This document shows, one piece after another, positions 6,225 through 39,696 of a DNA stretch of 64,000 nt. Under the pieces are notes generated by a model. That model was not told the origin of the DNA. It worked only from the letters and a program-made list of their open reading frames with translations, and made no database searches. Every line of letters starts with the position of its first letter. Positions within the stretch are counted from its first letter, which is position 1. This DNA is from Amphiscolops sp. MND2022. Taxonomy: Eukaryota. The stretch covers positions 68,078,001 to 68,142,000 of the forward strand of contig OZ076409.1 of the NCBI GenBank assembly GCA_964187785.1, in the 5' to 3' direction. The translations under genes and the position numbers were made by a program.

Positions 6225-6240
6225 TACACTCCCCGGGGTC
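6225..6240 (-). other. Putative polypurine tract of element A
   Basis: Minus strand reads gaccccggggagtgta immediately before the 3' LTR. The purine run is short. Confidence 0.45.
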
Positions 6241-7235
6241 TAGTCTTGACGTCCCCGTCAAGTGTGGGTTGGCGTCATCGAGTCTGTACCCAGAGTCACC
6301 TGTGTCCCACTGAGGAGGTAGAGTGCACATCAAGTAGCGCTGGGCAGTTCATTGGGACATCGTCAAGTTGGCCTCGTGGAAGTGTTTTTGACCCAGCGTT
6401 GCTGCATTTTGATCAAATCAACACCACTTTGTATACAAATCTTATACGGCAAGGTCATTATTTTTTGTAGCCTGTCGTGAGCAATTCAGGCGTTAAAATT
6501 TCTTTTCGGCCATTCAAGAAAAATTTTTTATTTGCCGTTAGTGTTAAAACTTGTTTTAAGGTCAACGACCATCACATGACTGTTCGAAACTTATTTTCCG
6601 AAGCTCGGGAGCTTCGCACTACTTGGCGTTTGATAAAAGTTCTTTTGGTAAGCAGTTGCCATAAAATCAATCAATTAGTACGGTCAATTTAAAATTTCTT
6701 TTGCGAGACTTACTCTCGATCCTATCAGGTAGCTCAAGAAAAACAATGGTCGAGGTTCATCAATCTTTTTATTCTATCCATTTCTCATCTCTCCCTTTTT
6801 GTTTCCTTTTCCTTCATTTTTTCTTTTTGTCTTTTTCGACAATAGCAACAGTGTAAACAATCACTAGTAACTAAAAGGGTGTAATAGCACCGAAAATTTA
6901 GAGCACGGAGTGCGCACAGCGCATCCACATCTAGCATAAGGTAGCATGAAAAAGCACTAACTGCAAACACAAATTGCAAGTTGAATATTGCATCTAACTA
7001 AGGCAAGGCAAAGACGCAGTTTCATGGTTGGGTTGCCGGTCCCAAAACGGAATAGTAAGGAGGATGAAGCCCGGGGGCTTCATCTCCACTTGGAGATTTT
7101 TACCCATGACCAATTGGCACTTCCATAATCGAAGTTTAGCAACAACAGAGATTGAAACCATGAGATTTCGCAAAAGTTCATCTAGCGTAAGACTATTGAA
7201 GTTAGAAATCGAATGGCGACAATGTTAGGTTTGTT

Positions 7236-11593: not shown

Positions 11594-11603
11594 GACGGTA
11601 ATT

Positions 11604-11620
11604 CTGAAAGAGTGCAGGTC
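11604..11620 (-). promoter_or_regulatory. Putative splice acceptor for a subgenomic ORF2 mRNA
   Basis: Minus strand reads cctgcactctttcAG|aattaccgtcATG, between the pol stop (11818) and the ORF2a ATG. Confidence 0.5.
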
Positions 11621-11817
11621 GATTGTAGCACACTTGATAGTAGGGCAGTACCATAGGTCATTTTGAGGGTAATACCAGGGAAAGTAATAGAATATCACAC
11701 ATTAACATTGAAGAAAAAGGTAACTTATTAGTTTCAAATAAACTCCGTGTCGATTCACTAAACTTAATCGAGCGGACAAAAAACAAAACAACGAAAAAAA
11801 AGAAGAAAGCAAAAGTT

Positions 11818-16263: not shown

Positions 16264-16272
16264 CTTCTTGCT

Positions 16273-19200: not shown

Positions 19201-21585
19201 ATTTGGAGGTAGCACGTTTTGCGGTAGGCCTGGTGCTGGGTGAACCAATTTCCCTGGCACGAAAGGGTGAGGCCTCGATTTCATTGCATACCTTGGGTCG
19301 TAAGGCTTTGACGTGTTTGGGCGATGCCGTTGCAATTGTCTCGTGGTGAACCTTAGGGATTCTACAGTTGGCGGCTCGGTCAGATATGCCTCTGCAGCGT
19401 ACACCACGGCCAACTCTTGTCGCAGCGTCGGGTCATTGACGCCATCTATAAAACGTTGCAGGATTTCATAACGACGTGTAGTGATAGGCTCGTCTGGGAA
19501 ACCTTGGGTGCGCAGACCTTCCAATGCATCTAAGAATTGCATCCAATCCTCTTTTTCCTGTTGGACACGAGACATGAAGGTTTGCCTGACGTGCATGCGG
19601 TTCCCACCGGTTCCAAACCTGCTGGCCAAGAGAGAGAATACCTTGTCGGGCTCGTCTCGTTCAGGTTCAGATTTGTTGATTATATAATTTCTCGCCTCCC
19701 CTTCCAGGTGGTCGATGATAGCCCATGCTCTGTCGATCTTTGGGGATTTTGCATGCACCCTTTCTAGAAATCGCTTCATCACTGGGAGCCATCCATCGAC
19801 AGAACCATCTTTAGTGCCTTTGTATACCGTAGGGCGCACCCTAGTTTGATCCCGATTAGCAATCAGCGGCGCTAGTTCCTTGGACATAGCTTTGGATATT
19901 GCCTCGGTGAACCTAAGTTGCTCCGGTGATATAGGCGCTTCTTCAGTGATAGCTGGTGGCGGGATACTGCTGCCTCGCGTTGAGTTGACAGAGTCATCGG
20001 TGCTTTCGGGGAGAGTCACTTCTCGGTGTCTAGTGCTGCTGGCGCATGGGTTGCCCGGGGGCAGTTCATCGTTCGCGGTTTGGAGTTCTGCGGCTGATTC
20101 TCCCAAAGTCGCATTTGCTGTTTGGAAGGTGCTGGTGACTTCAGTTAGTTCGTTTGTGCGTGTGGGCTCTCGCAGGCCGGTGATCCCCATGCTTGAAGTG
20201 TCGATAGTTATCACCTCGCACGTTGGTTCCTTCTTGTGAGTTTTGGTCGTGGGTGGAATATATTTTGTTGATACCGCAGATGGGATAAATTTCGTTGATG
20301 TTGATGCGGCTTCTCCATTTGAGACCAGAGTTTGTGGCAAAGGCGCGTACCTGGTCAAGTGTTGTTTAGAGCCGGATGGGTTTGTTGCGGTCGTCACACT
20401 CTCTTTTGGCTTGAGGGAAACGCTTTTCATGGGTTTTGGCAGTGATATATCGGTGTCTTGCAGCAACTCTTTGATGGTGTTGCCTGCTGGTGCGGGTTGA
20501 GGTTGGATATTTTTCAACATAGTGCCCATTGCTTGTATCTGTGAACATACCTCTTGCAGTTGAGCTTCCATGGGTACTTCTCTTTCGGTCACCATGTCCT
20601 TTATTTCGGCCATTCGATAACCCATGGCATCCATTCGGGCTGCCTGAATTTCATGTCCTTGCGCTTGTCGTTCAGTTGATGTTCGCAGTTCAGTTTGCAC
20701 GGCTTCTATCTCCTCCATTATTGATTGATGCTCCCTATCGCACCTTGCTTTACGTTCAGACAGTTGTGAAGCAGCTTGCTTCACGCCTATTTGAGCATCT
20801 AATAGAGCTTTGCGCGCTTTCGCTGCTTCATGTACGGCTCGGTATGCCGAAGATCGGGCAGATGCAGCCTTTGATGAGGGTGAGGATGAGCGCGAGTCGC
20901 CATGAGGTCCTGTAGTGCCAGTCTGTGCTAGTAGAGCTGGAGGCCGTACTTGCTTACCCTTCCCAGATGCTCGGGGAGCCGTAGCTTCTTGAAGACGTGC
21001 CCTGGCATAATTCATACCCCCGACATAAGACATTTGTTGCAATATCTCTGCCGTGTTCGCAGTGCTCTCGCTTGCCATGCTGGGAGCCTTGAGTTGTCCA
21101 GTGGCATTCAAGCAACTCATTTCAGCTTCTTCCTCAGCGTTTGTCCTGTTGGAGTTGGGCCATGTTCCTGCTTCGTCAGTACCGAAAGGTGTAACGGCTA
21201 CTTTGGTCAGTTCTTGCAACCATTTGGACGTGTGCGCCTGACTTCCTGTTTCGTCTGCTGAACCTCCGATATCATCGGTAGTCTTGGCGATCGGCTTAGC
21301 CTGATATTCCTCCGATGCGTCGTCTGACATAGGGTCTGAAAAATCGGGTTCCATAACGAAACTGTCGTCAGTTGGCCAATCTTCCTCCCTGGGGTCTGAG
21401 GTCAGGTCTGATATTGCACTGAGATTTGTCTCGCACCCCGTTGGGTCTGGTGTCTTTGATGCTTCAGTGCATCGCGAGGTGTCCTTCCTCCCCCCTTTTG
21501 AAAGATTAGAGCATCGCCGGGTGTTCGTGCGGCTTAATGTTCTCGTTATAGAATTCCAAAGGTTACGCAAACTGTTGGTTTTCAT
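16273..21585 (-). CDS. gag-pol: Element A gag-pol N-terminal part: Gag, protease, RT, start of RNase H
   Basis: Knuckles CFNCGLPGHFAREC and CVNCGMTEHSASQC. Protease LIDTGSG...LLGRNFL. RT motifs RFCCDFR, MPFG, YIDD. RNase H LDTDASG. Confidence 0.96.
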   Translation of the reverse strand: MKTNSLRNLWNSITRTLSRTNTRRCSNLSKGGRKDTSRCTEASKTPDPTGCETNLSAISDLTSDPREEDWPTDDSFVMEPDFSDPMSDDASEEYQAKPIAKTTDDIGGSADETGSQAHTSKWLQELTKVAVTPFGTDEAGTWPNSNRTNAEEEAEMSCLNATGQLKAPSMASESTANTAEILQQMSYVGGMNYARARLQEATAPRASGKGKQVRPPALLAQTGTTGPHGDSRSSSPSSKAASARSSAYRAVHEAAKARKALLDAQIGVKQAASQLSERKARCDREHQSIMEEIEAVQTELRTSTERQAQGHEIQAARMDAMGYRMAEIKDMVTEREVPMEAQLQEVCSQIQAMGTMLKNIQPQPAPAGNTIKELLQDTDISLPKPMKSVSLKPKESVTTATNPSGSKQHLTRYAPLPQTLVSNGEAASTSTKFIPSAVSTKYIPPTTKTHKKEPTCEVITIDTSSMGITGLREPTRTNELTEVTSTFQTANATLGESAAELQTANDELPPGNPCASSTRHREVTLPESTDDSVNSTRGSSIPPPAITEEAPISPEQLRFTEAISKAMSKELAPLIANRDQTRVRPTVYKGTKDGSVDGWLPVMKRFLERVHAKSPKIDRAWAIIDHLEGEARNYIINKSEPERDEPDKVFSLLASRFGTGGNRMHVRQTFMSRVQQEKEDWMQFLDALEGLRTQGFPDEPITTRRYEILQRFIDGVNDPTLRQELAVVYAAEAYLTEPPTVESLRFTTRQLQRHRPNTSKPYDPRYAMKSRPHPFVPGKLVHPAPGLPQNVLPPNQGQREAKPQIAPPGPASVKQAPAQQQPARVIPQGACFNCGLPGHFARECPNRDLARKPAARAAPEERVNLCENNVASACSGPVFCVNCGMTEHSASQCQNVPVHEDLAYSLWAEQPSASQTMSDSEMVLMLRPAEAAHVTTPLTVTCGKIQIQASPEPTTFDPSGRTIMSVRLLLAIERETRPELTLDALIEEITANENCRQLTLPQPEEWQVKGVTSTYHAYSPIPVKVCIDGVDMRFGATIITDAFPPGICLGPQELCCYNIDAQEPTGEARIDERASLVVSFVVPDAAPVPLRGLIDTGSGVSILTFSAYNRVAVRTGTLLRPYGIDLYAANGKTIKTFGLAEKVKFQLGGYELETNFVVVDDAMGVEDFLLGRNFLRAYQVLVDLTAMKVIVRAPSEPVWYHAHTQVSNESLNSSVAIAQDVVLQPFERAILRAKLLVDNLEPFMFRTVLINFQTPNRMLKNAIFLEDTVATVGETGFLYVSLGNLTSNVQRIKKGTLLGTAVPVTMVHKAIPQIVPGQSNETQQSNANYVCKVYEQMNLDSSSEYSSSSEFEFLSSTEPSELGLSEREVKKRTDPALMAPIPGPEAQLDEVRGLWGSTASDTLSKLLNEFDDLFMKFKADIGKCKIAKHPVEVEPGAVPHREGARRMSPDKAERANQEVRDLLALGMIQPSLSPWASGIVMVKKKSGELRFCCDFRPLNEVTIKDAYPLPRIDESLSRLGKAKIYTSIDLAWAFWQIPVRKADRQKTAFACELGLFEWRRMPFGMCNASATFQRAIARALQRIVNREGSMVMAYIDDIVIATETIEDHMDRLREVFQCLREAGFKMRVSKCDFMKSEIKYLGRVVSADGIKPDPKAVTKLKEWDIPRTKTELQSFLGFANYYRDFIPWHAKLVAPLHAITGVDSSFLWGEEQQRAFNSIKVALMEATALAQPDTEGEFVLDTDASGVAISGILHQWQGPPESRKLRPIVF

Positions 21586-23950
21586 GATTTCGCACGTCTC
21601 GAAAAGTCAAAAATCGATCTAGGGGTCGTACCGGCGTGAAACTTACACAGCGCGTTGATACCGTGGTGTGGGGCCGGAAACCGTGCGTTTGGGGCTTGCG
21701 GAACAGCTGATTCGCAAACAATTGAGTTTTTAGACAATTTTTGAGTTTTTTAGATTTCTTTATAAATGACTAAGATGCTTCGGACGCAACGCGTAATCAT
21801 CGGAAACACTTGAAAATTGGCCACCTGACCTTGTGGTAGGTGTACTACGCGATAGCAAAATCAAATCTAAGCTAAGGTTTTTATTTCAAGATTCGGGCTG
21901 ATCCGGACGTTCGGTACCCTTAGTCATCAAGATACATCAATTTTCATGCTTATTTCAAGATTATGCTTTACTGAAAAAAGCTAGCGGGCTCAAAATTTGC
22001 AAAACAACGTAGTATCTGGTACAAATGATAGAAACGAACGGCAATTCAACCTCGCTTTTTAATTAAGGTACTCGGATCACTCAGGAAAACTTTGAAAAAT
22101 TTCCCTTTATGCCCAACTTTTTGAGTGGTACGTTTTTTTTTTATTTTCTCACCAAGTACCGGTTGGATTGATACGAAACCTTGTAGCTACAGTCGATGAG
22201 CGTATACAATGCCGGTGAAACCATCAATTGAAAGCGCGGACGCTTGTTTGAGGTTCCGACCTTACTTGGATAACACTAAAAATTTTGGACTACTTTTTTT
22301 TTACAAATTCGCTAAGAGGGTCACCTCAAAAAGTGGTAGGGCTGAAAAAATGGGACCTACGTGTTGCCCCACTACTCGTAGTACTAGGATAAACCCTCGA
22401 TTAGGTGTGCCCGTTAAACACGAGGCACCGACAGTTCGTCAGTTTTGGATTATTTCGGCAGTTTTATAGTCCCCTGAAGTTGAAACGTTAGAGAACTTTT
22501 TTTGACTTTGGTGAAAGTTACGTTCACCAAATTTTCGGCACTAGCGTTATTTTTAGTGGTGGTTGTGAAAATACAACCACCTTTTCGCTAAGGTCCAAGG
22601 ATCAATGACCCGACCTTAGCTCAGAGACAGTCCGGATTTTAGGAAAATGGAGGCTTTTCAGTGCATTTTTCTACTTTTCTCAGCACTGAAAAGGAATTTT
22701 GGGATGCGGTCTTCACTATAGATCGTTAAATTTACTGAATAAACTGAAAATAATAGCCCGGGGGCTATTCTAACCGTAAAAGTGTTCGTCAATAGTCAAA
22801 TTGTGTTTCTTCTAAAAGTACTATAGAAAAACCTCAAATTCACAGTTCTCGTAACTTTTTTTAAGAAGTAGTGGTTATAATTACCAAAATGGGTATTGTT
22901 GGGTACCGGCAGGTGTGCCCCAACCTAATTGCAACCATACGGGGGTGTTTGAAAGCTTCTATACAAGTTTCCCCACAAATTCAAAGTGCTAAAAATGTTC
23001 AGTCTTCCAAAAACGGGGTTTTTTCCTCACAAAATTTATACTAAGTGCCTTTTCGGGCAACTTTGAGTAGTTCGTCGCGTTTTTTTGCGAACTCATTAGA
23101 GTCCTGAGCTACTTTCATTTAATTTCTGCAGGTGTGTGGCTAGCACCAAGAGCGCTCGCGCTCATGTAAGTGTTTCGCCTCAAAATGGCCAAATTTGGCA
23201 CTTTTCGTCGAATATACATGAGAAAACGCACTTTTTTCGCACAAAACAGGTGCAAAAGCACACACTTAGTTACAGAAGGCTCGTAAAAACATTGGCAAAT
23301 GGTTGTACATAAAATTTTGAGCAACCCAAAAAATTTTTTCAACCTGACTCAAAAATATCATACAACCCGGACTGACGAGTCGTGTCTTCTCGTTCTTTTT
23401 GCTCATCACCCAGAACAGCTAGAGACAAACGGGTTGCACCATTAGACACGTCAGCATTTGTAGTACGTCTCCACCAAATTTCATTTCTCTAGGTTGCCTG
23501 TACGGGAAATGGGATCGGTGAGTCGTATAACTCGTTTCGGCAGATTGTAAGATTCCTTTGAGCAAGGATCGTCCTCTTCTCAACACTCACTTCATTGGTC
23601 ATAAAAAGCTGAAAAAGGCTAGAAAACACCTGTTAACACTTCTAGCAGCCTTCCAACGGCTTGCTGGACCAATTTGCGAGTGACCCGTCAAGAGGGTAGA
23701 CTATTTCGATCGTTACCTGTCAACTACTAAAAAAGCATAAAAATTACAACATACAGCGCTTTTTTGCAAGATTTACCTATATCCACCGGGCTTGAAGTCT
23801 TCAATAACACATACAGGGTAAAAACGTGGAAAAACTCTGCTTCTCTCCTCTTTCCATCAGAGTCGGGTCGTACTTGGCGTTAATCACCAGAGTGTCGGCT
23901 ATTTTAAAACCATTAAGGGAAGCACTTCGAAGCGATCCCTCTGTGGTCGC

Positions 23951-23968
23951 CATAAAATGTGTTCTCCA
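23951..23968 (-). other. Putative primer-binding site of element A
   Basis: TGGAGAACACATTTTATG directly follows the CA end of the 5' LTR on the minus strand. The tRNA is not identified. Confidence 0.6.
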
Positions 23969-24702
23969 TGTAACGACAAGCTCTCACCATTGTCGCCGTA
24001 ACCATAAGAGTAGGAGGAACACATGGCATGGGTATTTGCCCGGGACAGGCGCCCATGGCCATGAGTCCATTTTGCCTCCTTCGGGTAAGAAATGTCCCGT
24101 CAGAGGAGGATTCCGCTTCTTGTGAAGTGCTCGCCGGCCTGATCCAGTCTGTAATTGCTATCAGTAGTGCGCATTACGCTTTTTCTTCGAAACCAACACT
24201 TAGACAGCCTTTAAAAAATGCAAGTGGTGGAAAGGAAAAATCAAATTTTTTCGAAGTTACACAGGAGATCGAAACGAGTAGCTCACGAGCTGTTACAATA
24301 AGAAAATACGAAAATTACTACATAATTAGCACTTTTGAGGCAGCAATTAGCCGGGGACACAAGCACGGATGCTTGGTCAAGCTAATTGACTCATTTTTGG
24401 TAATCACAGCGTCTTGTAACGCTTCGCTGAAGAAAGCACTGGTTAGAACAAAGTTCAGTCCGTTTTGGCAGAAATTTGAGTCTTTTTCTGACAGCGGCTG
24501 TATTTTTCTGCAGTCTTCTTGTTCGGTTGGGGTCTCTCTCGAGTCTTTTGCTCAAATTCTCTTCAATTCCGTGGGCAGGTACTTGAATAAAGACACGCTG
24601 GCGTCTAGCGGAATATGACTCTTTAGTAGAGGAGATATAGTCCCTTGAACGAAATTTTCATCGAAATTTTCGAAATCGTGCACTCGATAGGTAATCGCTA
24701 CA
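23969..24702 (-). repeat. Element A 5' LTR (734 bp)
   Basis: Direct repeat of 5492-6224. I found only one 1-bp indel and one substitution by eye. Confidence 0.95.
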
Positions 24703-26181
24703 GCAACTTGTATTCTATTTGCCATAACTATCAAAAAGCCCTACCCAACACGATCCATTTGAATTGAAACATTTGAAATAAACTGCATTTATACCTTAGA
24801 AGTCATGTAATTTATCTATTCTGAATGTAAAATATCATTTAGTGATGATTTAATATTACGTAATACTAGTGTTAATTTGTACGTTTCTAGCAAATTGGAC
24901 ACCAAGGCGTACAGGTAAAGGAAACGAGTTCAAATGTTTCCTCGCCTGTCGCCTTGGACAGCAAGTCTAAATGAATCTTGACCAATCAGAGCGCAGTATT
25001 TGAATAACCAGTGCTCTCATCAAACTGTACGCGGCGCTTTAATTAAAGGACTTGACGGCCATATGCCGCCTGTCGACAAACAAATAAGGACTGCCGTGTC
25101 CATTGGACGCTGAGACCACTTTTGAATTAAAGGTGCTGAATGATGAATACAATTACTCAGAACTTAGAAAAGCCTTTAATTTCTCATGAAATGGATACAT
25201 AGTGTCCAAAGACCGCATGGTAATGAAATGTTGCGTGCTGTTAATAAGTCTCATGCAAGATGATGGGACGCATGTAATTTGCTTATGTATATGTGTGCTG
25301 TTAATATGCTTTCTAGACGCAAGGGCTTCCCGCCAACAGGTTACCTGTCGGGAAACCTCCTTTGAAGTCACTTGCATCATAATGATGTCAATAGCTAGTT
25401 GTTGCTATTTTTAGAATTGTTACTCTTTTTAGAAAGCCCTTAAGGCTATTTGTAGAATATGACAACTCATATTCTGACTGTCATGTAGTTTTTAATATAT
25501 ATAGCCGGGACATTCAGTCCCGGGGACACAGGTTGTGAAAAGCTACATGTTAAAGTTACTTGTTACAGTAATATCACGTTGTATTTGCAAGTTAAAAGAT
25601 AATTAACATCTTTACCTTGTGACAATTTCTTATGCCTTCCACAAGAAGACGAAAGGCAAAGGCCAGGAAATCTAGAGAAATGGACATGATGTCCGACTTT
25701 GAAAACATAGACGTAATGTTGGGAAATATCAACAATAACCCCATAGAAAGGGAATTAGCTGAAGCAATAGATCAGTCGTCGACCCATGAGGACGCTGATA
25801 CAAACGCATACCAAGAAAACGAGTATAAAAATTACTTGCATGAAAATGACCTGCTAAGACAAAATGAGGTCAGGCAGTCCTTTGAGACTTTCTCAAATGA
25901 ATTCAATCTTAGACTATCTCAAGAGATGGATTCAATGATGTCTATGATGCATAGTCAAATAAATAGAGCTGTTACGACAGCTATAGCTGAAAGAGTCATT
26001 CCAGAAATCCAAAACATTGTTAGTTCAATGTCATCTTCAGGGAACAGGGACACTGAGGCCAGCATGTCTCCTGGTAGTCAGGAAAATAGGGAAAGTTCAT
26101 CCGGGTTGAAATCGAAGGTAACAAAAAAGAACTCAAGGTCTGTTGGTGATTTGAGAGACACCGCGCCTAGTAGTCATTACA
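24703..26181 (+). repeat. Remainder of the element B 5' LTR
   Basis: Matches ~38224-39696. Ends ...cattaCA, followed by TGG. Confidence 0.9.
25454..25523 (+). promoter_or_regulatory. Putative LTR core promoter of B: TATA-like run flanked by two perfect inverted repeats
   Basis: agaatatga-caac-tcatattct (25454-25475), TATATATA (~25496-25503), ccgggac-attca-gtcccgg (25505-25523), ~110 nt before the gag ATG. Conserved in all three LTR copies. Confidence 0.55.
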
Positions 26182-27459
26182 TGGTGACAGGAGCTAACGA
26201 AACCCAACAGCAAATTCCCGAACTTCTGAGAGGACGAATCCACTCAATCCCGAACCTGGAGAGACAGCAATCCAACCACAATGTCTCTTTGGATACCACT
26301 CTGCCAGCCCCAGAACCACAGGTTCCGGCAACCCCACAGGATCCATTGAATAGACTAGCAGACGTCCTGGTCAATCTGAAAATAAACCACAAACGATGAC
26401 CATCCGACCAGTCCAAACCACACCAATGACGTTTGATGGCAAAAGCGAGAAATTTGAACTTTTTGAGGACTTGTTCCACACAATGATCAAAATGCAACCG
26501 GCCATGACAGAGCAAATGAAAATCAACCATTTTCATTCCTTACTCAGGAAAGGGGCCCTGCAAACTTTCAGGAACATAAACTCAATTAACCGTCAAACAC
26601 TTGAGGACGTGCTGATCATATTCCGGAGAAAATATGTTAAACCGGAATCCCAAGCAACTGCAAAACACAAATGGCATCGGTTGACATTCGACCCAAACAC
26701 CATGAAACTGCCGGATTTCTTGGAGGAACTCAACCAGGGGGCAGAAAAAGCATTTGGTGAAAATGCGAAAAGCATGATTGACAGCTTATTGTACGCAAAA
26801 CTGCCTCCAAAACTCAAACGATCTGTCAACATGGCCCGCCTGGAGAACGGTACATATGAAGAAATTGTCGCTCATCTTGAAAGAGAGCCCGAACTCAATG
26901 CATGGAAGAACCAGATGACTTACCAATGGCCACAATGGCCTCTGCATCCACTAGTAATAACAACCTACTGTCTAACGGAATAAAGACCAACAAGGACGCA
27001 CAATGCTCTTATTGTAAAGCCACAGGCCACTTCTATAAGAGCTGCCCCAAATTGAAAAAGAAGAAAGAAATGGAGGACAAAAAGGGCAAAAAGCCCCAAC
27101 GCCCAGCATACACAGAATGCCCCACTTGCAAGAAAACGAATCACCCTGCTGAGCGGTGCTGGAAAGGAGCTGGGGCACACTTACGTCCCAAAAGGACACG
27201 ACCCGAAGATAAAGCCGATGAAACCTCCGGGGACGAAAAATCGTCCAAGAAGTCACCTAACTCTGAGACCACATCTTCAGGCCAATCAAGTTCACGTCAA
27301 CCCGATTCAAAAAACTCATTTCGCCACGACTCCAAGTTTCCAACCAGATGTCAGTGCGACAAAATGTCATATCTGACCCACCAAACATTATTTATAAACA
27401 AACTCAAAACGACACCACAGGAATGCCATCGACTGTCTGGGGAATACGAGAGGACGTAG
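25632..27459 (+). pseudogene. gag: Element B gag, copy 1 (frameshifted)
   Basis: MPSTRRRKAK... then FDGKSEKFELFEDLF, knuckles CSYCKATGHFYKSC and CPTCKKTNHPAERC. 1-nt frameshifts at ~26380 and ~26900. Confidence 0.88.
26182..26195 (+). other. Primer-binding site of B (TGGTGACAGGAGC), duplicated at 28658
   Basis: Directly follows the LTR-terminal CA. The same TGGTGACAGGA occurs after the LTRs of D (57220, minus) and E (61183). Confidence 0.8.
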
Positions 27460-28120
27460 AAACTAGACCGATTGAGGTCAATGTCCAATCAGCTGGCGTG
27501 TCAGAGGAAGAGCAAAATTTCTTCAATGAGGAGGATAACGAAACGGAAGAACAGATTTGGGAACGGAAAAAACAATCCAAAAAGGGACTCATTGGACGCT
27601 GATTCCACTTTTGAATTAAAGGTGCTGAATGATGAATACAATTACTCAGAACTTAGAAAAGCCTTTATTTTCTCATGAAATGGATACATAGTGTCGAAAG
27701 ACCGCATGGTAATGAAATGTTGCGTGCTGTTAATAAGTCTCATGCAAGATGATGGGACGCATGTAATTTGCTTATGTATATGTGTGCTGTTAATATGCTT
27801 TCTAGACGCAAGGGCTTCCCGCCAACAGGTTACCTGTCGGGAAACCTCCTTTGAAGTCACTTGCATCATAATGACGTCAATAGCTAGTTGTTGCTATTTT
27901 TAGAATTGTTACTCTTTTTAGAAAGCCCTTAAGGCTATTTGTAGAATATGACAACTCATATTCTGACTGTCATGTAGTTTTTAATATATATAGCCGGGAC
28001 ATTCAGTCCCGGGGACACAGGTTGTGAAAAACTACATGTTAAAGTTACTTGTTACAGTAATATCACGTTGTATTTGCAAGTTAAAAGATAATTAACATCT
28101 TTACCTTGTGACAATTTCTT

Positions 28121-29936
28121 ATGCCTTCCACAAGAAGACGAAAGGCAAAGGCCAGGAAATCTAGAGAAATGGACATGATGTCCGACTTTGAAAACTTAGA
28201 CGGAATGTTGGGAAATATCAACAATAACCCCATAGAAAGGGAATTAGCTGAAGCAATAGATCAGTCGTCGACCCATGAGGACGCTGATACAAACGCATAC
28301 CAAGAAAACGAGTATAAAAATTACTTGCATGAAAATGACCTGCTAAGACAAAATGAGGTCAGGCAGTCCTTTGAGACTTTCTCAAATGAATTCAATCTTA
28401 GATGGATTCAATGATGTCTATGATGCATAGTCAAATAAATAGAGCTGTTACGACAGCTATAGCTGAAAGAGTCATTCCAGAAATCCAAAACATTGTTAGT
28501 TCAATGTCATCTTCAGGGAACAGGGACACTGAGGCCAGCATGTCTCCTGGTAGTCAGGAAAATAGGGAAAGTTCATCCGGGTTGAAATCGAAGGTAACAA
28601 AAAAGAACTCAAGGTCTGTTGGTGATTTGAGAGACACCGCGCCTAGTAGTCATTACATGGTGACAGGAGCTAACGAAACCCAACAGCAAATTCCCGAACT
28701 TCTGAGAGGACGAATCCACTCAATCCCGAACCTGGAGAGACAGCAATCCAACCACAATGTCTCTTTGGATACCACTCTGCCAGCCCCAGAACCACAGGTT
28801 CCGGCAACCCCACAGGATCCATTGAATAGACTAGCAGACGTCCTGGTCAATCTGAAAATAAACCACAAACGATGACCATCCGACCAGTCCAAACCACACC
28901 AATGACGTTTGATGGCAAAAGCGAGAAATTTGAACTTTTTGAGGACTTGTTCCACACAATGATCAAAATGCAACCGGCCATGACAGAGCAAATGAAAATC
29001 AACCATTTTCATTCCTTACTCAGGAAAGGGGCCCTGCAAACTTTCAGGAACATAAACTCAATTAACCGTCAAACACTTGAGGACGTGCTGGTCATATTCC
29101 GGAGAAAATATGTTAAACCGGAATCCCAAGCAACTGCAAAACACAAATGGCATCGGTTGACATTCGACCCAAACACCATGAAACTGCCGGATTTCTTGGA
29201 GGAACTCAACCAGGGGGCAGAAAAAGCATTTGGTGAAAATCCGAAAAGCATGATTGACAGCTTATTGTACGCAAAACTGCCTCCAAAACTCAAACGATCT
29301 GTCAACATGGCCCGCCTGGAGAACGGTACATATGAAGAAATTGTCGCTCATCTTGAAAGAGAGCCCGAACTCAATGCATTGGAAGAACCAGATGACTTAC
29401 CAATGGCCACAATGGCCTCTGCATCCACTAGTAATAACAACCTACTGTCTAACGGAATAAAGACCAACAAGGACGCACAATGCTCTTATTGTAAAGCCAC
29501 AGGCCACTTCTATAAGAGCTGCCCCAAATTGAAAAAGAAGAAAGAAATGGAGGACAAAAAGGGCAAAAAGCCCCAACGCCCAGCATACACAGAATGCCCC
29601 ACTTGCAAGAAAACGAATCACCCTGCTGAGCGGTGCTGGAAAGGAGCTGGGGCACACTTACGTCCCAAAAGGACACGACCCGAAGATAAAGCCGATGAAA
29701 CCTCCGGGGACGAAAAATCGTCCAAGAAGTCACCTAACTCTGAGACCACATCTTCAGGCCAATCAAGTTCACGTCAACCCGATTCAAAAAACTCATTTCG
29801 CCACGACTCCAAGTTTCCAACCAGATGTCAGTGCGACAAAATGTCATATCTGACCCACCAAACATTATTTATAAACAAACTCAAAACGACACCACAGGAA
29901 TGCCATCGACTGTCTGGGGAATACGAGAGGACGTAG
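28121..29936 (+). pseudogene. gag: Element B gag, copy 2 (13-nt deletion at ~28402, frameshift at ~28860)
   Basis: Duplicate of 25632-27459. The 354-aa ORF 28872-29936 carries the capsid-like region and two CCHC knuckles. Confidence 0.88.
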
Positions 29937-32070
29937 AAACTAGACCGATTGAGGTCAATGTCCAATCAGCTGGCGTGTCAGAGGAAGAGCAAAATTTCTT
30001 CAATGAGGAGGATAACGAAACGGAAGAACAGATTTGGGAACGGAAAAAACAATCCAAAAAGGGACTCATGGTCCCAGAGACAGTCATCCACATTGACGCC
30101 ATATCCGAAAAAACAATAGAAGAAATTACCAATTTCACTCAAAAGTTGCGACGAACTAACCAGATACTGCTTGAACAGTCTAAAGACCCGATTTTGCTCC
30201 AATTGAAAGCAAAATTTCAGAAGGAAGAATACTCTGAAGAAATCCTGCAACAGGATATTCGGTATAAGTACTATTTGAACAACATAGACCGAATAGTCCT
30301 TAAGGATGAAATTGTGATAAAGCAGTACTATGACGAAACTGGCCAGATCAAATATCATCAAATTCTTTTACCGAAACACTTGGTTCAAGAACTATTACAA
30401 GCAATACATGGCACAGCACATCGCCACCCAGGCATTTCTAAAATGTTACAGGAAATTCGCCAAAAATACTACTACCCCGGAATTGCAAAACACGTCAAAA
30501 ATGGGTAGAAGGCTGCGAAACATGCGCCAAGGACAAAAGGGTCTCCAACACGGTAATTACCCCAGAATTACTAAATTTGCCTGAATGGGACCTAGGCCCA
30601 GAAGATGCCATGCAAATTGATTTGTTACCACATTTACCAACCAGTGGCGGATACCAAACAGTGATGACCGCAATAGACGTGTTTTCAAGATACCTTTTTG
30701 CCTACACGCTCATTGAGGCAACAGCCACAAATGTAGCCAAAGTAATTATTGATATAATGACGAAACATTCCTATTTGCCAACAACACTCATCAAGGACAA
30801 GGGGTCCGCATTTACCTCAAAGATTTTAGAAGAAATTACTGAAATACTGGGGATTACACTGAAATGTGCCACTACTAAACACCCGCAAACTATTGGCAAA
30901 CTTGAAAGGACACACGCCTCTTTAAAGACCAACCTGAAGATGGCCTCGGGGGAATATCGTCGTCAATGGCACAAATATTTACCATTAGCTGTGCTTAACT
31001 ATAACACTACTTATCACGCTAGTATTGGTTGTGAACCTAGCAAAGTCTTTCATGGACGAATTCCCTACAACGTCCTTGATCATAAATTGGGAAATAATCC
31101 TAACAAAAATTTCCTACCGACAACTGAATTCGCGGAAGAATTACAGCAGAGGACGCAAATCCTTATTGATCAGACAAAAAAGAACATTATGCAGTCGTAT
31201 TTAAAGTACAAAGAGTACTACGACCGCAAGGCCAAAGCGGCTCCGTTACAGGAGAAAGACTACTGTTTTGTTCTTCAACCGAAAGCGGATAGTCAAGGCT
31301 CTAAAATACCGTTTAGAGACTTCCGATGGATTGGTCCCTTTGTCGTTCAAAAGACTTTACCAAATAACAATTATATAGTGCGTCGTTTAAATACGAATAA
31401 AACGCAGATCTTGCACCGGATCAGACTCAAAAAATTTGTTCCAAATGTCCCATTAGAGGACAAATACAAAGAAGAGAAATTACAGCCCGATGAAGAAATA
31501 GTAATACCGCAAGATGGTTTGTATACCATTTCATGGGAAGCGGACTTCGAATACGAGCTGTTCGATCCGAAGAAAAATGATTGGCCAGACACGGCCACGC
31601 GTCTGCCGCAAGACGCCACGAACGGCGAAGTGGACTATTACGTCACCGAGAATGAAAATACCAGCGTGAATGACGATGAACGCATCAGCGAAAAGAATGA
31701 AGATGACGTCATTAAGAATAAAATTAGGCCGAACACGGCCAATAACCGCGAAACAACGCCTCTACAGGACGAGACGCCAAAGCAGTTGCGAGATGAAGCT
31801 GACGTCACCGAAGATGAAATAGGGACGCAATCGGCCACAAGCCGAGATACGTCGTCCCCGCTGAGCGAAACGCCACGTGGGACGAAAAATCAAAATGATG
31901 TCACAAATGATTTAGGAAACGCGGAAATTGCTTCAAAAGGAGGCGTAGATATTACCGTGCTCGGAATATCAGAAAAAGGGAAAAATGAAGAAAACTCTAG
32001 CCCTAGAGGAAGGAAATATAACCTTCGACCTAACCCCACCCCCAACTTTACTGATGAATACAGATATTAG
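29786..32070 (+). pseudogene. pol: Element B pol reduced to integrase (PR-RT-RH deleted; one frameshift at ~30500)
   Basis: HHCC (HGTAHRHPG...CETC), core (QIDLL, KDKG, LERTH), WIGPF, acidic tail ending KYNLRPNP. No DTG, YxDD or RNase H motif between gag and IN. Confidence 0.9.
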
Positions 32071-35000
32071 TCAGATATGTAAATTAATGTCCCGGAAGTC
32101 CCTTGGACTAATATGAAATTTCCTTTTACTGGGACTATTCTGACTCAGGATCTTTTTATACAAATATACTGAAAACAACGAAAGAGACCTACTGGCCAAC
32201 AAACAAACTACAAAATAAAATAATAAACAGGAAGAACATTGAACAGTGTATGACAAATTACAAAATAACAGACTAAAGAACAAATGTACAATATGTACAT
32301 TTAAGATTCTGAATAGCTCCACTCCCTTTCGAAGTTCCAGATCCATCAAAGGAGACTTGCGCCGGCTACCAGTTATGGGAGAACCAGACCGGGACCCAGA
32401 TCGACTCGAAGAAGCAGATTTAGGGGACTGATGCAAAGACTTGTAGGTACTCTGGAGGATCTTGTAAATTCCTGCTCTTCCAAATGTATCAACATGAGAC
32501 CAGGGGTCAGCTGCCACGTTCCCAGAGTTAAACTGCGCCTCCAATTCGCGATACTTGATTAAGGCATCCTCATTATTGCAAACGGTAATAGCATCGGGGA
32601 CTCGAGCCAAATAAGACTGGGCAGGCATCAGTACATCGGCCAATCTACACCGAGGACTTTGAGCATCCACATCTTGAAAACGTATTGGCGGCAGCATAGC
32701 AGTATCTTCTGTGAGGCACAAGCAACTCAAGCGAAACAACCGATACAAATGGTATCGACTTCGAAGTTCTGGCATTTAGGACAACACTTCCACCATGTCC
32801 GTAAACCCTTCGGGAGAGTCCTTGAGGAAAGCATAATGCTGACGAAATTGGTCCACAAATTCAGTGTATTCATCCCTGCAGTCGTCCTCTGAAGACCCTT
32901 CAAGCCAACCACGAAGGCTGAAGCTGTTGTATAACGCGGTGAAACAATAGGTGGCCTGCTCCATGGGGAGGGTGAGTAATACGTGGGGGTCGAAACTTGC
33001 AAGGCCCCTGACGATCTCGCCATTTATGCTGTGATGGCTCAAGAACTTCTCAAGGAGAAATACCAAGTAACCTCTCGCTTTGCCAACGAATTTCTCCTCG
33101 CAGTCTTCAATTAACTTGGCCAGGTTGGGTAATGGTCCCTCCTTGTCGCTGTTGTCCCGTTCGACCTTAGCAGTTGCGGCTTGCTCGAGATCCTGTTTGA
33201 GCTTTAGCCTCACTAGAAAATCTCGCGATGAAAGCTGACGAAGGGTCTCGGTGCGTAAAATTGGTAACTGCGTCCAATCAGTGTCCTTAGGTAAGAACTT
33301 CGGCAAAAGGGAACGGTAGCAAAGTTTTCGGACGAAGCTGTTTAATTGCCCGAAAGTGAAGAATCCGGTATCCCTGTGACCCACGAGGCTCCTCTCGAAA
33401 CACTTTTTGTCTAAACAAAGCAAATCACTTGAAAGTACTGTTCACTTAAGCAGGGTAGTCGACTAAGTCTCCAAGGACACGAACACCCTTTTAACTCAGC
33501 AACTATACTTACAGTCATGGATAATCTTGCCGTAGAACTCAAGCTTCACACAAAAGAAATCGTCGCTGATAACCAGCCATTCCAGGCTCTGGGGCTGAAA
33601 GGAAACAACACCCTCATTGAAGTCCGAACTATGCCATTACGAAAAAAGAGATTGGGATTAATAAAACAAAGTGACTTATTACCTTGTTCTTGACTCCACT
33701 CATCTCATAGCTGGGGGCAATTTTATTGATGTGGTCAAGGAATGGCTGCCAGTTTGTGATGATTTCTGAGCAAAGGGCCGGGAGGGAGCGGATTTGCAAC
33801 TCACAATTGGATATGGCCTAGAAAGAAGAATAGGGAGTTAAAATACAGCTATAAAAGTAATGGGCACACGAAAGTTTGCTCCGTTCCGTACCTTGGTCAA
33901 TTCAGGGCAGCTGGCCATCCAGGGCTCATCACGGCTATTGTTTAGGAAAGCGATGAGGTACTTGAGCTGGGTGTAGAAGTCTATACGTCCGAACACGCAA
34001 CCCTCCTTCTGATGCATAACTTCGGGTAAGGACAAGGCCTTGAACCTAAAGGGATACTCGACCCCCTTTTTGAAGATAGGAGCCTGCTCAATCGTCTGAA
34101 GTACTTCTGACGTACAACCCGAGAGGCACGCAATTTGGGGCTCTGCAGACAAGAAGGAGATGAATTGTGCCACAAGTAGCAGTTGACTGGGGCCTGGGTC
34201 AGAAGTCATAGAATATCTGCTCAGCTGTACTTTGACAAGTTTGTCTAATTTCCAATATCGTATGGACAACACACATTGGGTCCCGTGTGGCTCAAATTCC
34301 AATGAGTATGCCCCAGTCCTGTTAACTGACTGCGCGATGTCTTCCATGCCGCGCAAGAAGACATGATGGAAAATCGCCTGAAATGCATACGTACCCTCAA
34401 AGTGATACAAGTCTCGAAAACACATGGTACCTATGCCAATCTGTTAGGAAATGCAGACTACTGATGCGTTTAACTGCTTAGTTGATTCGACAAAAAAAGT
34501 ATGAATCTTATACTCACAGTTAAGGTGAGGGAACTCCAGTCAAGTTGCCGAAAGAGGTCCTGATGGTTGGTAGAGTTGCCGACCTCCGCCCACAGTCCTT
34601 CGAGTACTGTGAGATTGCCGAAATGTGGGATGAGGCGTCCAATGAGGGAGATTTGTGTCGCTAGCCGCACATCCTCAGGGTCTTTCAGTCCGCCAATCCC
34701 GGCCATACAGTCTTCATAAAAAAGGAAACGAGGGCCAATGTCGACTAGGGGATCAGTCATGAACCGGGGCTTCTCCTTCTCCAAATCGCGTGCTGACAAT
34801 ATTCGCCCATCCTTCCCCGGACTGCATGGGTCATAAGACCGGTGTGTTTGTCGATCTGTCCCAGGTGTTCAAACCTCCACCTTTGGTCCTTGCGAAGATG
34901 CGCTTCTGACTGGTAGTGGCGGATTATCTCCCGAGCTCCCTTGGAGTAAATGGAGACGTTCGTTTTACAGATCTGGCAGTAAAATTTGTGTTTATTGTGA

Positions 35001-36244
35001 ACTGGATCAAGAGGTCCAGTTACGAAGATCTTTGTCCATTGTATGCCTTTGAAATATGCGGGCTTCATAATCTTTCCGGGCTTGCTAGCTAACTTCCGCT
35101 TCTTCTTGGGAGGGCTGGACCCTGAAGGGTACTGATGGGAGTCAGAGTGCATTTCGCTTAAGGGCATATAATCACCCTCACTGTATCCAGGACTTGGAAC
35201 GGTATTACAAGCAGTGCTTGTACTAACACTGACTTCCAGTTGTCGCGCCTCGGAAAAACCTGGCCCTGGTGTGGCACTCCGGCTTTCAGTCTGAAGGGTC
35301 GCATCCTCATCTGATGTAATGGCCCCGCTGGTGTATTCATCGGTGGAACACCCACCATTTTCAGGCTCTCCCTCTGAACTTGTGGAGGCCCCTCGTGCTG
35401 GCTTAGCCCCTCGTATCATGCCCTTTCTGAATTGGCTGGGTGTCTGCCTCCCTCCTCCATAAACTGCATGCAAAACTAGAGACCTCATGGCGTGGATTGA
35501 CGATCTGACTGTCTCATCTGAGATGGTCTTTAACACAGCATGTACTTGTGGTTCACTAAAAGAAACCGTCAAGTGGCCCTTTGGGAGCGCTATTGGAGGG
35601 GCGGTGGCAAAATGCTTCCTTAGCTCAGCTCGTCCATTCGCAGAAAATTGTTCGGGTAGTTTTGGATCTTTCACAGTTGGCCCGACAGGAGTTTCTTCGG
35701 TGGCTTTCTTACTGTTACCGGGGGTGTCATTCGGAATTGAGAAGAGTTCTGAGTTGACGATACTGGATGTTGGCCTGTTCTGCACCCCCTCAGCTCCCAT
35801 GCTGTCGTACAACTCCTCAACCTCACTCGCGTCAGTGCTAAAGTAGTCCTTACCATTGTTTGGTGTTGGCTTCTTGATGGCAAAACTGCTTGAGGTTCCT
35901 TGTTTCATTGTTAGGTCAGGTTGTGTTGCAACCAACTCTTTCTGCGGAATATCAGAAGAGGGTGCATCTTGCTGTTCGTCAGTTACCTTTTCAGTTTGGA
36001 TGCTTCCAGCAGGGGGCGGAAGGAACGTAATGTCTAGAGAGGGATCATTGGCAGCTAAGGTCCGCAGTGTTTTGTCGGCATAGAAAGTGAGGCTTCCCTC
36101 AGTATCGCAACTGCTGTTCGACTGGTTCGAAGAAGGACGCTTGTCAATCTGCTCACCAACCGCCTCAGTATGGACTGGTTGGTCGGCCCAAACAACACTG
36201 TTTTCGAACTGTGGTACTTCAGTTGTTGATTCCTCAGTGGTCAT
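32071..36244 (-). pseudogene. Antisense, intron-containing gene in B encoding a BED-type Zn finger / hAT-transposase-like protein (~1200 aa spliced)
   Basis: FYCQIC...RHYQSEAH. GT-AG introns at 34517-34378 (or 34441), 33891-33818, 33682-33595 and 33512-33411 all preserve the frame. One frameshift (~34815) and one in-frame TAA (32776-32778). The 3' end is uncertain. Confidence 0.8.
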
Positions 36245-37465
36245 GTCTAAATAGACAGAAATGAAATCTAGCGGCAAACTTCCTGAAATAAAATCCATTT
36301 ACCGCACTTAAAATCTTCCGGAAGTAGATTTGATTGAACACTTGTGAACACTCGTGTTTGTGGACAGGAAGTACGTGAACTAAATGAGAGCCCTGATCAA
36401 GCCTCAGCTTAGTTCAAAATCGAAACATTCATTGATGAAAAATACGGGATCAACTGACCTGTTTGAAATTCAGAGAATGGGGAATAAGACAAGTAGGTTG
36501 CAGCGAAGTACTGTTGTGAGCTGATTGCTGATTGTGAGGTAGACGAAGAAGGGACTGGATGTCGATTTTCCGTGGTGATCCAGAGAAATCCACAGGGATG
36601 AGGACGTACGGACACTGAGTCCAGGAACGGAGACGGGATGTAATTAGATAGAAAATATAAATAGAAGAGACTTAGAGACTAACTATTGGATAAATACGAG
36701 ACGAATCAATACTGTGATGATCAAACACTGGGTAATATGGAGTAAAGAATTGAAATTGAGCAAGTGAAGAGGTGAATCGGCAAGGTGACAAAATGTCAAA
36801 ATTGGAGTTCGTGGCTATACAGTTTGGTGTCAAATTTGTTGTTATTTACAATTTACGACGTTACGTGGATAGAGTCTGCCAGCGATATCTACATTTCCTT
36901 ATTTATTTCGAAAACTTTGTTATTTTTACAAAATTATTTCATGATTTTATCTTATTTTATTTTTTTTATTGTATTTTCAAGGTCATTTCATATTATTCTT
37001 TATATGGATTTACGACCTTGGGAAGCCATTTTGGCTAGGAAAGTGTTTTACTGTATTCCTATTGGTTGATCAAATTTTTGGTGGACGGCGTGGCCGACTG
37101 CCATAGCTTTGCCCTCTTGAAACCTTCAAGTGTTCGATGAGTGCTAATAAACACTTGAAGTGACACTCTTAATTTGGAGGTGTTGACAAAACTGATATAA
37201 GCCAACAAGGCCGTTGTGGGCGTTATCAAAGAAGGCAAGGCGGATAGATGAAAGATATTACCAAGATGGAATTTGTTGTTGAAAAATTATCCTTCTTAGG
37301 AGACGTAAAACTCCGGGAAACTGAAACGAAGACTCCCGCGAATCGACGGAAGGGGAGACCGCCATTGTTTCACAATCATTCACGACGACCAGTTGGCTAT
37401 TTGAATTAAAACTCAAAAAACTTCTCAAAAGAAATCTCTCAAAAAAAATTGCAAAGAAAATAATT

Positions 37466-38288
37466 ATGGACAGGTTCCTATCAAGTCATTTTGACTCGGA
37501 GTCCCCTGAATACTACCCAGAAGACTTTCAGGGAGCAGCCCCGGGAGACGGGATAATTTGCATATCCAGTGACGATGAAATGGAATGTGCGAGGAGCGCT
37601 TCAGTAGACGACCTAGAATCTCTGTCCGACGATGGTGAAGTGGCCCTACTGGCGGAATGCATCGAAAGACAAATGGAACTCCCATTGGCCTCAGAAAGCA
37701 TTCCGGTACCCTCTTGCTCAAACCAACAAAGAGAAAATCGCGCTGGGACCCCCAGGCTTTCATACATCGCCGGATCTATGTTCGACGCCGGATATTTGAT
37801 CTAGGGATGAGGGCCAGTTGCAAGGGACCCAAGGCTCAGAAATGATCACCCGATCAATATTTGCAGCCAATTAATCCCAATGGTGGACACACCAATGTCG
37901 CCCCCTGCTATGGACAAATACCCTACTGACGACTGGGGGGCAATAGCGGAATCAGCTCCTAGTGATAAACAACAATGCCCAAGTGGAATCCACTTTAAGG
38001 GCCCTAGCGACTTACATCACGGGCTGCACAGACTGCCTCATTTGTGGAAAGTATGTAGAACAGATTCAGGATGAAGCAGTGATCGACTACCTTCATAAGA
38101 CGGCTGTCCGAGGAGAGTCCCCAGAACAATTTAATGCCAGGAGACTAGCATTCTTAGAAGGGATGAAGGTGGGCTGCTTCATGCTAATTCCAGGGGGAGT
38201 GTCCCAGGCGTCCGCCTGTGATGGCAACTTGTATTCTATTTGCCATAACTATCAAAAAGCCCTACCAAACACGATCCATTTGAATTGA
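37466..38288 (+). pseudogene. Element B sense accessory ORF3 (~270 codons, disrupted), running across the PPT into the 3' LTR
   Basis: ORFs at 37466 and 37880 are in the same frame, separated by two stops. A frameshift then leads to 37962-38288 (GCTDCLICG). Acidic N-terminus. Confidence 0.55.
38192..38199 (+). other. Polypurine tract of B
   Basis: agggggag immediately before the TGTCCC of the 3' LTR. Confidence 0.75.
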
Positions 38289-39696
38289 AACATTTGAAAT
38301 AAACTGCATTTATACCTTAGAAGTCATGTAATTTATCTATTCTGAATGTAAAATATCATTTAGTGATGATTTAATATTACGTAATACTAGTGTTAATTTG
38401 TACGTTGCTGGCAAATTGGACACCAAGGCGTACAGGTAAAGGTTCAAATGTTTCCTCGCCTGTCGCCTTGGACAGCAAGTCTAAATGATTCTTGACCAAT
38501 CAGAGCGCAGTATTTGATTAACCAGTGCTCTCATTCAAACTGTACGCAGCGCTTCAATTAAAGGACTTGACGGCCATATGCCGCCTGTCGACAAACAAAT
38601 AAGCACTGCCGCGTCCATTGGACGCTGAGTCCACTTTTGAATTAAAGGTGCTGAATGATGAATACAATTACTCAGAACTTAGAAAAGCCTTTGATTTCTC
38701 ATGAAATGGATACATAGTGTCGAAAGACCGCATGGTAATAAAATGTTGCGTGCTGTTAATAAGTCTCATGCAAGATAATGGGACGCATGTAATTTGCTTA
38801 TGTATATGTGTGCTGTTAATATGCTTTCTAGACGCATAGGCTTCCCGCCAACAAGTTACCTGTCGGGAAACCTCCTTTGAAGTCACTTGCATCATAATGA
38901 TGTCAATAGCTAGTTGTTGCTATTTTTAGAATTGTTACTATTTTTAGAAAGCCCTTAAGGCTTTTTTTAGAATATGACAACTCATATTCTGACTGTCATG
39001 TAGGTTTTAATATATATAGCCGGGACATTCAGTCCCGGGGACACAAGTTGTGAAAAGCTACATGTTAAAGTTACTTGTTACAGTAATATCACGTTGTATT
39101 TGCAAGTTAAAAGATAATTAACATCTTTACCTTGTGACAATTTCTTATGCCTTCCACAAGAAGACAAAAGGCAAAGGCCAGGAAATCTAGAGAAATGGAC
39201 ATGATGCCCGACTTTGAAAACTTAGACGTAATGTTGGGAAATATCAACAATAACCCCATAGAAAGGGAATTAGCTGAAGCAATAGATCAGTCGTCGACCC
39301 ATGAGGACGCTGATACAAACGCATACCAAGAAAACGAGTATAGAAAATACTTGCATGAAAATGACCTGCTAAGACAAAATGAGGTCAGGCAGTCCTTTGA
39401 GACTTTCTCAAATGAATTCAATCTTAGACTCAAGAGTTGGATTCAATGATGTCTATGATGCATAGTCAAATAAATAAATAGAGCTGTTACGACAGCTATA
39501 GCTGAAAGAGTCATTCCAGAAATCCAAAACATTGTTAGTTCAATGTCATCTTCAGGGAACAGGGACACTGAGGCCAGCATGTCTCCTGGTAGTCAGGAAA
39601 ATAAGGAAAGTTCATCCGGGTTGAATTCGAAGATAACAAAAAAGGACTCAAGGTCTGTTGGTGATTTGAGAGACACCGCACCTAGTAGTCATTACA
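38200..39696 (+). repeat. Element B 3' LTR (~1.5 kb; contains the gag N-terminal coding sequence from 39147)
   Basis: Homology with the 5' LTR ends exactly at ...cattaCA, followed by the TSD CTTGG. Confidence 0.92.

Follow-up and report, generated by a model that had tools for sequence, protein, structure and literature searches.

An antisense, intron-containing gene of probable DNA-transposase origin carried by a Ty3/Gypsy retrotransposon family of Amphiscolops sp.

We analyzed a stretch of 64,000 nucleotides (the window) from Amphiscolops sp. MND2022 (GenBank assembly GCA_964187785.1, contig OZ076409.1, positions 68,078,001 to 68,142,000 of the forward strand), part of a 1.07-Gb assembly that was searched for copies. 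The window holds a Ty3/Gypsy long terminal repeat (LTR) retrotransposon, here called element B, and on the opposite strand, between its integrase and its 3' LTR, lies a gene with four introns in its coding region. A previous reading made from the letters alone (the sequence-only reading) had proposed that this antisense gene encodes a BED-finger/hAT-transposase-like protein. Among the 52 matches listed by a genome-wide DNA search, nine were full-length copies at 73-92% identity; together with three more distant copies and the window's own copy, they gave an alignment of 13 copies from five subfamilies. No second copy of the antisense gene was found elsewhere in the 64-kb window.

The antisense gene occupies the identical site in 13/13 copies, tail-to-tail with the integrase, and both its place between pol and the 3' LTR and its conservation, which resembles that of pol, are those of an antisense accessory open reading frame (ORF). 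It is also present in a young element (loci L043 and L044) with open gag and pol. The hallmark of a hAT element, namely terminal inverted repeats (TIRs) with an 8-bp target duplication, was absent around the gene in both the window and L043, and the exact inverted 11-mers near it amounted to three AT-rich words in the window and none in L043. Since the position is constant, TIRs are lacking and the gene is present in a young element with full gag and pol, it belongs to the Ty3/Gypsy family and is no nested insertion. The sequence-only reading had itself named TIRs and absence from sister copies as the signs of an ordinary nested hAT; we looked for them, found neither, and conclude that this is an integral, intron-containing antisense gene of the family.

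All of the splice GT and AG dinucleotides named by the sequence-only reading are present where it placed them, and the four coding introns it described are kept across the five subfamilies together with the exon lengths (Table 1). Each of the eight coding splice sites is retained in 11-12 of the 12 other copies. An alternative acceptor for the first intron at 34441, also put forward earlier, is kept in only 5/12 copies, compared with 11/12 for 34378. As a control, four other subfamily representatives were examined: the predicted sites were kept in 8/8 cases, as opposed to 3/33 of the other intronic GT and 1/24 of the other intronic AG dinucleotides, and the figures for exonic dinucleotides were 23/111 (GT) and 24/159 (AG). 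Among the three most distant copies, compared pairwise, the introns are 34-51% identical and the exons 63-77%. The gene is therefore real, and this conservation suggests that the antisense strand is transcribed and spliced.

The spliced frame is open in 3/13 copies, where it encodes 1192-1213 amino acids, so that the product length of about 1200 residues given by the sequence-only reading was right for open copies. The other ten copies, including that of the window, bear private lesions. In the window copy the spliced frame (with an X at the break in exon 1) meets stops only at residues 1022 and 1257; exon 5 is interrupted by a premature stop codon (32776-32778) and has two deletions, one near 32354 and the other near 32309. 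The frame had been thought to reach 32071. Sister copies stop at a codon aligned to approximately 32301, and the window frame runs on to 32071 because of 28-nt and 22-nt deletions specific to it.

Table 1. Features of the antisense gene and of element B, in window positions
Feature	Positions	Strand	Remarks
Exon 1: disordered N-terminus, basic motif resembling a nuclear localization signal (NLS), C-x2-C-x16-H-x5-H finger	34518..36244	-	frameshift near 34815 in window copy
Intron 1	34378..34517	-	donor kept in 12/12, acceptor in 11/12 other copies
Exon 2: RNase H-like core (predicted) without catalytic aspartates	33892..34377	-	486 nt in 11/13 copies
Intron 2	33818..33891	-	donor kept in 11/12, acceptor in 12/12 other copies
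Exon 3	33683..33817	-	135 nt in 11/13 copies
Intron 3	33595..33682	-	donor kept in 11/12, acceptor in 12/12 other copies
Exon 4	33513..33594	-	82 nt in 13/13 copies
Intron 4	33411..33512	-	donor kept in 12/12, acceptor in 12/12 other copies
Exon 5: all-helical domain (predicted) and disordered basic tail	32301..33410	-	
Probable intron of the 5' untranslated region (UTR)	36247..36458	-	conserved non-coding block, four GGAAG words
Element B (Ty3/Gypsy), entire, nested element A included	5465..39696	+	TG...CA termini; identical 5-bp target duplication at 5460-5464 and 39697-39701
5' LTR of element B, bulk	24703..26181	+	opening ~27 nt at 5465-5491, separated by element A
gag of element B	25623..29936	+	broken; tandem duplication (25101-27592 / 27590-30069)
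Integrase of element B	29744..32070	+	Pfam Integrase_H2C2 and rve
Second accessory ORF (sense)	37466..38288 (L043 6741-7631)	+	~280 aa in open copies, broken in window; ends inside 3' LTR
3' LTR of element B	38200..39696	+	

Upstream of the start codon, and conserved right up to it, lies a leader block (36247-36458) that contains the four GGAAG words and keeps 65-96% identity between subfamilies that are far more diverged in the coding DNA around it. A 5' UTR intron had been suggested at 36302-36247. Its acceptor at 36247 is kept in 12/12 copies and stands; the 36302 donor site reads GT in 24 distinct loci, GC in 9 and is absent in 1, and a donor at 36458 is more likely, with GT[ACT]AGT in 30/34 distinct loci. 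An upstream in-frame ATG at 36298 is a possible start, but was not preferred, since the sequence is conserved only as far as the acceptor and the changes in that region seem to be nucleotide-level. RNA structure in the leader was considered and rejected (z from -1.6 to 1.6 in 11 copies, both strands).

Selection on the gene was estimated from the ratio of nonsynonymous to synonymous divergence (dN/dS) by the Nei-Gojobori method between natural copies, a check the sequence-only reading had proposed. For the folded parts of the protein (finger, exon 2, exons 3-4 and exon-5 core) dN/dS was 0.03-0.07 between the window and locus L008 and 0.05-0.10 between L043 and L046, and it was 0.14-0.30 for the disordered ends; the integrase gave 0.06-0.10 between subfamilies. 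The folded part is therefore under purifying selection on par with the integrase. In several more distant pairs synonymous sites are saturated, the proportion of synonymous differences (pS) in the folded part being 0.71-0.94 against a nonsynonymous proportion (pN) of 0.07-0.26. Close pairs gave higher and noisier values (0.12-0.89), as is expected after insertion, and no region of the antisense gene had dN/dS above 1. A protein search of the genome with exon 5 returned 7553 first-look candidates; among the 108 matches listed, 90 lacked an in-frame stop. Two distant queries gave 100-108 listed matches each at 33-40% identity, 85/100 without an in-frame stop for one of them, although none of these counts are copy numbers. 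Searching the library turned up 445 relatives at E<=0.001. No longer homologs of exon 5 were seen among 8000 candidates, and scans of metagenome and viral contigs confirmed 0/369 and 0/8 pattern matches, respectively.

The predicted protein begins with 390 disordered residues. A conserved basic NLS-like motif stands just upstream of the finger, whose cysteine and histidine residues are kept in 51/52, 50/52, 49/51 and 49/51 aligned rows, so the CX2C...HX5H finger and basic motif of the sequence-only reading were both borne out. The finger and exon 2 were folded by way of a database protein (P0178) that reads through intron 1 in frame, with a mean predicted local distance difference test (pLDDT) score of 63. 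In this model exon 2 forms a strand-strand-strand-helix-strand-helix arrangement, its core (residues 243-332) having pLDDT of approximately 66-92 by block, and integrases head both fold searches made with it: Foldseek ranks retroviral integrase cores first (E 0.011 upward; Hermes transposase at ranks 22 and 47), and a wide structural search also places integrases first (Z 6.3), integrase scores overall being Z 6.1-6.7. These scores are modest because the model held only the first half of the core. The models thus support an RNase H-like transposase/integrase fold for exon 2. Exon 5, modeled separately, is all-helical (pLDDT 82.8).

Comparison with Hermes, to which the sequence-only reading had pointed, gave weak but colinear similarity to both models. 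Hermes structure 8edg was found with the P0178 model at rank 23 (Z 5.2, root mean square deviation 7.6, 123 aligned residues, Hermes 133-264) and with the exon 5 model at rank 46 (Z 4.6, deviation 6.3, 161 aligned, Hermes 368-609). It is the sole entry in both top-50 lists, which were drawn from 48,161 chains and would share about 0.05 entries by chance, and it gives the longest alignment in each. The 103-residue gap between the two matches is close to the approximately 120 residues of remaining exon 2 and exons 3 and 4. Since Hermes had been hypothesized beforehand and is the only shared entry, with the longest alignments, colinear order and a fitting gap, the paired matches weigh more than either would singly. 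An Atlas search with exon 5 pointed the same way: a cluster with the hAT dimerization domain (PF05699) on 60% of its members was matched at 0.90 and was common to 23/30 matches, with PF27046 nearby. Sequence-profile searches of the PDB with both alignments found nothing at E<=10. Taken together, the models make it very probable that the antisense protein descends from a transposase of the RNase H-like type, and the weak colinear Hermes matches with the weak Atlas match make hAT its probable source.

In Hermes, changes at D180, D248 and E572 impair the transposase, according to the available part of PMC2533014. Placing the corresponding positions from the model and by eye against the Hermes sequence, we found glutamate instead of aspartate on the first catalytic strand (32/36 and 35/36 at two candidate positions) and glycine at the second position, at the end of the fourth strand (31/37, with aspartate once). 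No Cys-x2-His is conserved after the second position (columns 327-346), and the region matching Hermes E572 shows a conserved L-P-x-V-x-F without any acidic column. The sequence-only reading had not been able to find a canonical DDE triad, and indeed the columns read E, G and non-acidic, so that neither the DDE triad nor the CxxH motif of hAT transposases is present. Most likely the antisense protein is no longer a transposase.

Between the leader of the antisense gene and the 3' LTR, and divergently oriented with respect to that gene, lies the sense ORF. At the protein level its types share no more than 42-57% identity, with conserved Cys/His residues, and no Pfam family was matched; it also contains a hydrophobic-then-acidic stretch that we take to resemble a SUMO-interacting motif. 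Between loci L045 and L046 the identity is 98% for integrase DNA and 96% for the sense ORF, against only 68% for exon 5, and one antisense allele adjoins two sense-ORF types that are approximately 54% identical to each other. Trees of 17 copies built from the finger and from the sense ORF disagree, and the approximately unbiased (AU) test rejected constraining the groups of either gene to stay together in the tree of the other (p-AU 5e-26, 4e-67 and 2e-55, for groups picked from the identity table). The leader block follows the antisense allele, the integrase protein is 95-98% conserved across subfamilies, and the two accessory genes do not co-segregate. The cassette therefore reassorts among integrase and LTR types, probably through template switching within conserved spacer islands.

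That the antisense gene is carried by element B, as the sequence-only reading had it, stands, although the window copy of the element is damaged: compared with L044, approximately 2.9 kb of pol encoding protease, dUTPase, reverse transcriptase and RNase H is deleted upstream of the integrase. The 5' and 3' LTRs of the window copy are 96.7% identical over 1484 nt, and a TGG resembling a primer-binding site directly follows 26181. At the sister loci L044 and L043 gag is open and pol encodes protease, dUTPase, reverse transcriptase, RNase H and integrase, followed by the antisense gene, the sense ORF and the LTR; this element is young, its LTRs being identical at 1635/1635 nt, and has a 5-bp target duplication. 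The TG...CA LTRs with a short target duplication (window and L043/L044) and the Gypsy-type order of pol (L043/L044) are those of a Ty3/Gypsy family. The family pol has a dUTPase-like domain between protease and reverse transcriptase (L044 6101-9898), and the integrase has its own C-terminal extension. The gag matches DUF1759 in Pfam, a family we take to occur mainly in BEL/Pao elements. Some 185 codons at the start of gag fall within the LTR, 5' of the primer-binding site (25623-26181 and 39144-39696), and hence each LTR carries the gag N-terminus. An island in the LTR at 38410-38480 is nearly identical between otherwise unalignable LTR types and is a candidate shared binding site.

Several other repeats lie in the window. 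Element A, a different, 19-kb Gypsy element (5492-24702, minus strand), is inserted in the 5' LTR of element B; its LTRs are 99.7% identical, it is flanked by an apparent 3-bp duplication only, and it carries two extra sense ORFs of 1220 amino acids (7239-10898) and 360 amino acids (10622-11701) with no Pfam match. Degraded relatives of the Gypsy group of element B occupy 48210-57314 (minus strand) and 60483-64000 (plus strand), with integrase 61% identical to that of L043; one of them carries a 3.2-kb tandem duplication and has no trace of the antisense gene beside it. Broken ORF pieces at 43500-46850 (minus strand), in which Pfam confirmed only DUF1759, presumably belong to a BEL/Pao element, judging by motifs. 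Three diverged copies of a unit of approximately 170 nt lie just outside the 3' end of element B (40144-40665).

The reading that we prefer, with a probability of about 0.42, is that the antisense gene encodes a dead, hAT-derived DNA-binding protein that in trans either activates its own family or protects it from silencing. An ancestral Ty3/Gypsy element would have taken up a DNA-transposase gene, most likely of a hAT, in reversed orientation between pol and the 3' LTR. The gene would have an internal promoter of its own, placed upstream of the leader and independent of the LTR, and its transcript would be spliced; the introns would be copied at every retrotransposition because the genomic RNA is the opposite strand. 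The catalytic residues would have been lost, and the zinc finger, RNase H-like scaffold and helical domain kept under selection. The product may be a nuclear, oligomeric, sequence-specific DNA-binding protein, nuclear DNA binding being a likely property of it, and it could act on the leader block or on shared LTR islands, promoting or protecting transcription of the element. Since the alleles move freely among LTR types and the finger is nearly invariant, the target would be common to all subfamilies or would move with the cassette, and the leader block (36247-36458) and the LTR island (38410-38480) are candidates.

A number of observations weigh against this proposal. Pfam zf-BED and the hAT dimerization domain had no match in the query or in 83 relatives, where only sub-threshold C2H2 fingers appeared, and profile and pairwise tests against Ac-type hATs of the host were negative (best z 2.1 of 21 pairs), although this is a weak test, with six shallow loci from one hAT group. 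Each structural score lies below the tool's confidence line (Z under 8), Foldseek found nothing at E<=0.001 among the PDB and viral models with either model, and 22 residues (201-222) within the N-terminal Hermes match are intron-derived. The Atlas recognition values of 1997 and 2039 are below 2300, and with exons 1-2 (P0178) the Atlas matched other transposase families only, in every case under 0.8. That the gene reassorts freely with LTR types argues against an allele-specific pairing of protein and LTR, and the evidence does not separate activation from repression or targeting.

Repression would have the same anatomy: a dead DNA-binding protein could restrain its own family or limit copy number, sparing the host. 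A host-domesticated, transposon-related domain that is also found in Gypsy elements acts in silencing, as the available part of PMC5418596 reports, and antisense transcription converging on the 3' end of the integrase could damp the element (PMC7264820). We regard such self-restraint as unlikely, since very young subfamilies that are amplifying keep the gene open, as would suit a gene that helps them to spread, although tuning is still compatible with this. The basic NLS-like motif and the transposase scaffold would also suit a factor that binds cDNA ends or the integrase, brings them into the nucleus and tethers the pre-integration complex to chosen chromatin, and with an integrase so conserved across subfamilies one interface could serve all of the reassorted alleles; but the integrase has a C-terminal extension of its own, the gene would be read from a transcript of its own that shows no sign of being packaged, and this role in targeting or import likewise appears unlikely. 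Deeply diverged alleles, saturated at synonymous sites, persist and swap onto nearly identical integrase backbones, which could reflect an arms race in which the protein targets genes or silencing proteins of the host, perhaps jointly with the sense ORF and its stretch presumed to resemble a SUMO-interacting motif. Such a host-directed effector is improbable, given that no region has dN/dS above 1, the finger is nearly invariant and the two accessory genes do not co-segregate.

A nuclease or recombinase function retained by way of a non-canonical active site would account for the two highly conserved glutamates of the first strand, for further acidic columns and for strong selection on the core; with glycine at the second site, no CxxH, no third acidic residue, no TIR substrate nearby and impairment of Hermes by changes at the equivalent residues (PMC2533014), it is very unlikely. 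An ordinary nested hAT or decaying passenger, which the lesions in 10/13 aligned copies and the many ordinary hATs in the genome might have suggested, is refuted for the subfamilies examined by the same position in 13/13 copies, the lack of meaningful inverted 11-mers in the window and L043, purifying selection between subfamilies and the absent catalytic triad. Activation or anti-silencing is therefore favored over each of these explanations. We also propose, more tentatively than the role itself, a lasting domestication: a complete hAT transposase gene, with its introns but stripped of its active site, would serve this lineage as an exchangeable DNA-binding trans-acting factor that shields the family from host silencing or steers its integration, and would have radiated into many alleles that swap between backbones.

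Antisense accessory genes are already known in LTR retrotransposons. In plant and some fungal Gypsy elements, antisense ORFs of unknown function, without similarity to other transposons, lie between pol and the 3' LTR (PMC7264820), and TRP28 occurs in 97% of Retand clusters according to the available part of PMC11963269. The gene described here resembles the ORFs of Retand, Grande and RIRE2 (TRP28, gene23) in being conserved, antisense and so placed, and the plant ORFs offer a precedent for an antisense accessory protein that is nuclear, is expressed from a promoter of its own and is proposed to be a regulator (PMC7264820; PMC11963269, in part). It differs from them, with their TRP28 or SMC-like domains, in its approximately 1200 residues, four coding introns and apparently whole transposase architecture; the word "intron" is absent from the main text of the Retand survey. 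The plant mobile domain of MAIL1 and MAIN is likewise shared by Gypsy elements, Mutator-like elements (MULEs) and the host and is linked to silencing, with anti-silencing speculated, but that domain is a passenger fused to MULE transposases, whereas here the transposase itself would have been taken up (PMC5418596, in part). Large Gypsy elements with accessory genes are also known from invertebrates, in rotifers (ORF3) and as planarian Burro, which has a dUTPase between protease and reverse transcriptase as in the present family (PMC6431247, in part). Rotifer ORF3 products are exonucleases and esterases, and in the available passages none of these invertebrate ORFs is transposase-derived; "transposase" does not occur in the available passages of that paper (PMC5408684), nor "antisense" or "hAT" in those of the review (PMC6431247). 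In titles and the opening parts of abstracts we found no description of a hAT-derived antisense gene in an LTR element; most subscription journals, Repbase Reports and supplements lay outside this search, and a prior annotation is possible. As far as this search reaches, what is new is that such an antisense gene would derive from an inactivated DNA transposase, that four coding introns are conserved in it and that its alleles swap. Spliced accessory genes of this kind escape repeat annotation. What antisense accessory genes do for LTR retrotransposons has yet to be settled (PMC7264820), and the recognizable DNA-binding scaffold, candidate targets, natural broken and open copies and reassorted alleles of this family make the question testable.

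Like Hermes, the antisense protein appears to combine a finger, an RNase H-like core and a helical C-terminal part in the same order. VANC, an anti-silencing protein encoded by VANDAL transposons, works in trans on the family that it belongs to and co-evolves with its target motifs in each family separately, unlike the present cassette, which reassorts among LTR types. Transposase domestication is well known with the host as the new owner, as in the hAT derivatives DAYSLEEPER, ZBED and FAM200/GTF2IRD2. The gene described here differs from hATs and from these host-domesticated derivatives in lacking the DDE triad, CxxH and TIRs, in its 390-residue disordered N-terminus, and in being owned by a retrotransposon. 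Its new owner thus appears to be another class of mobile element, in which it is under selection as strong as that on the integrase across a large radiation within one genome.

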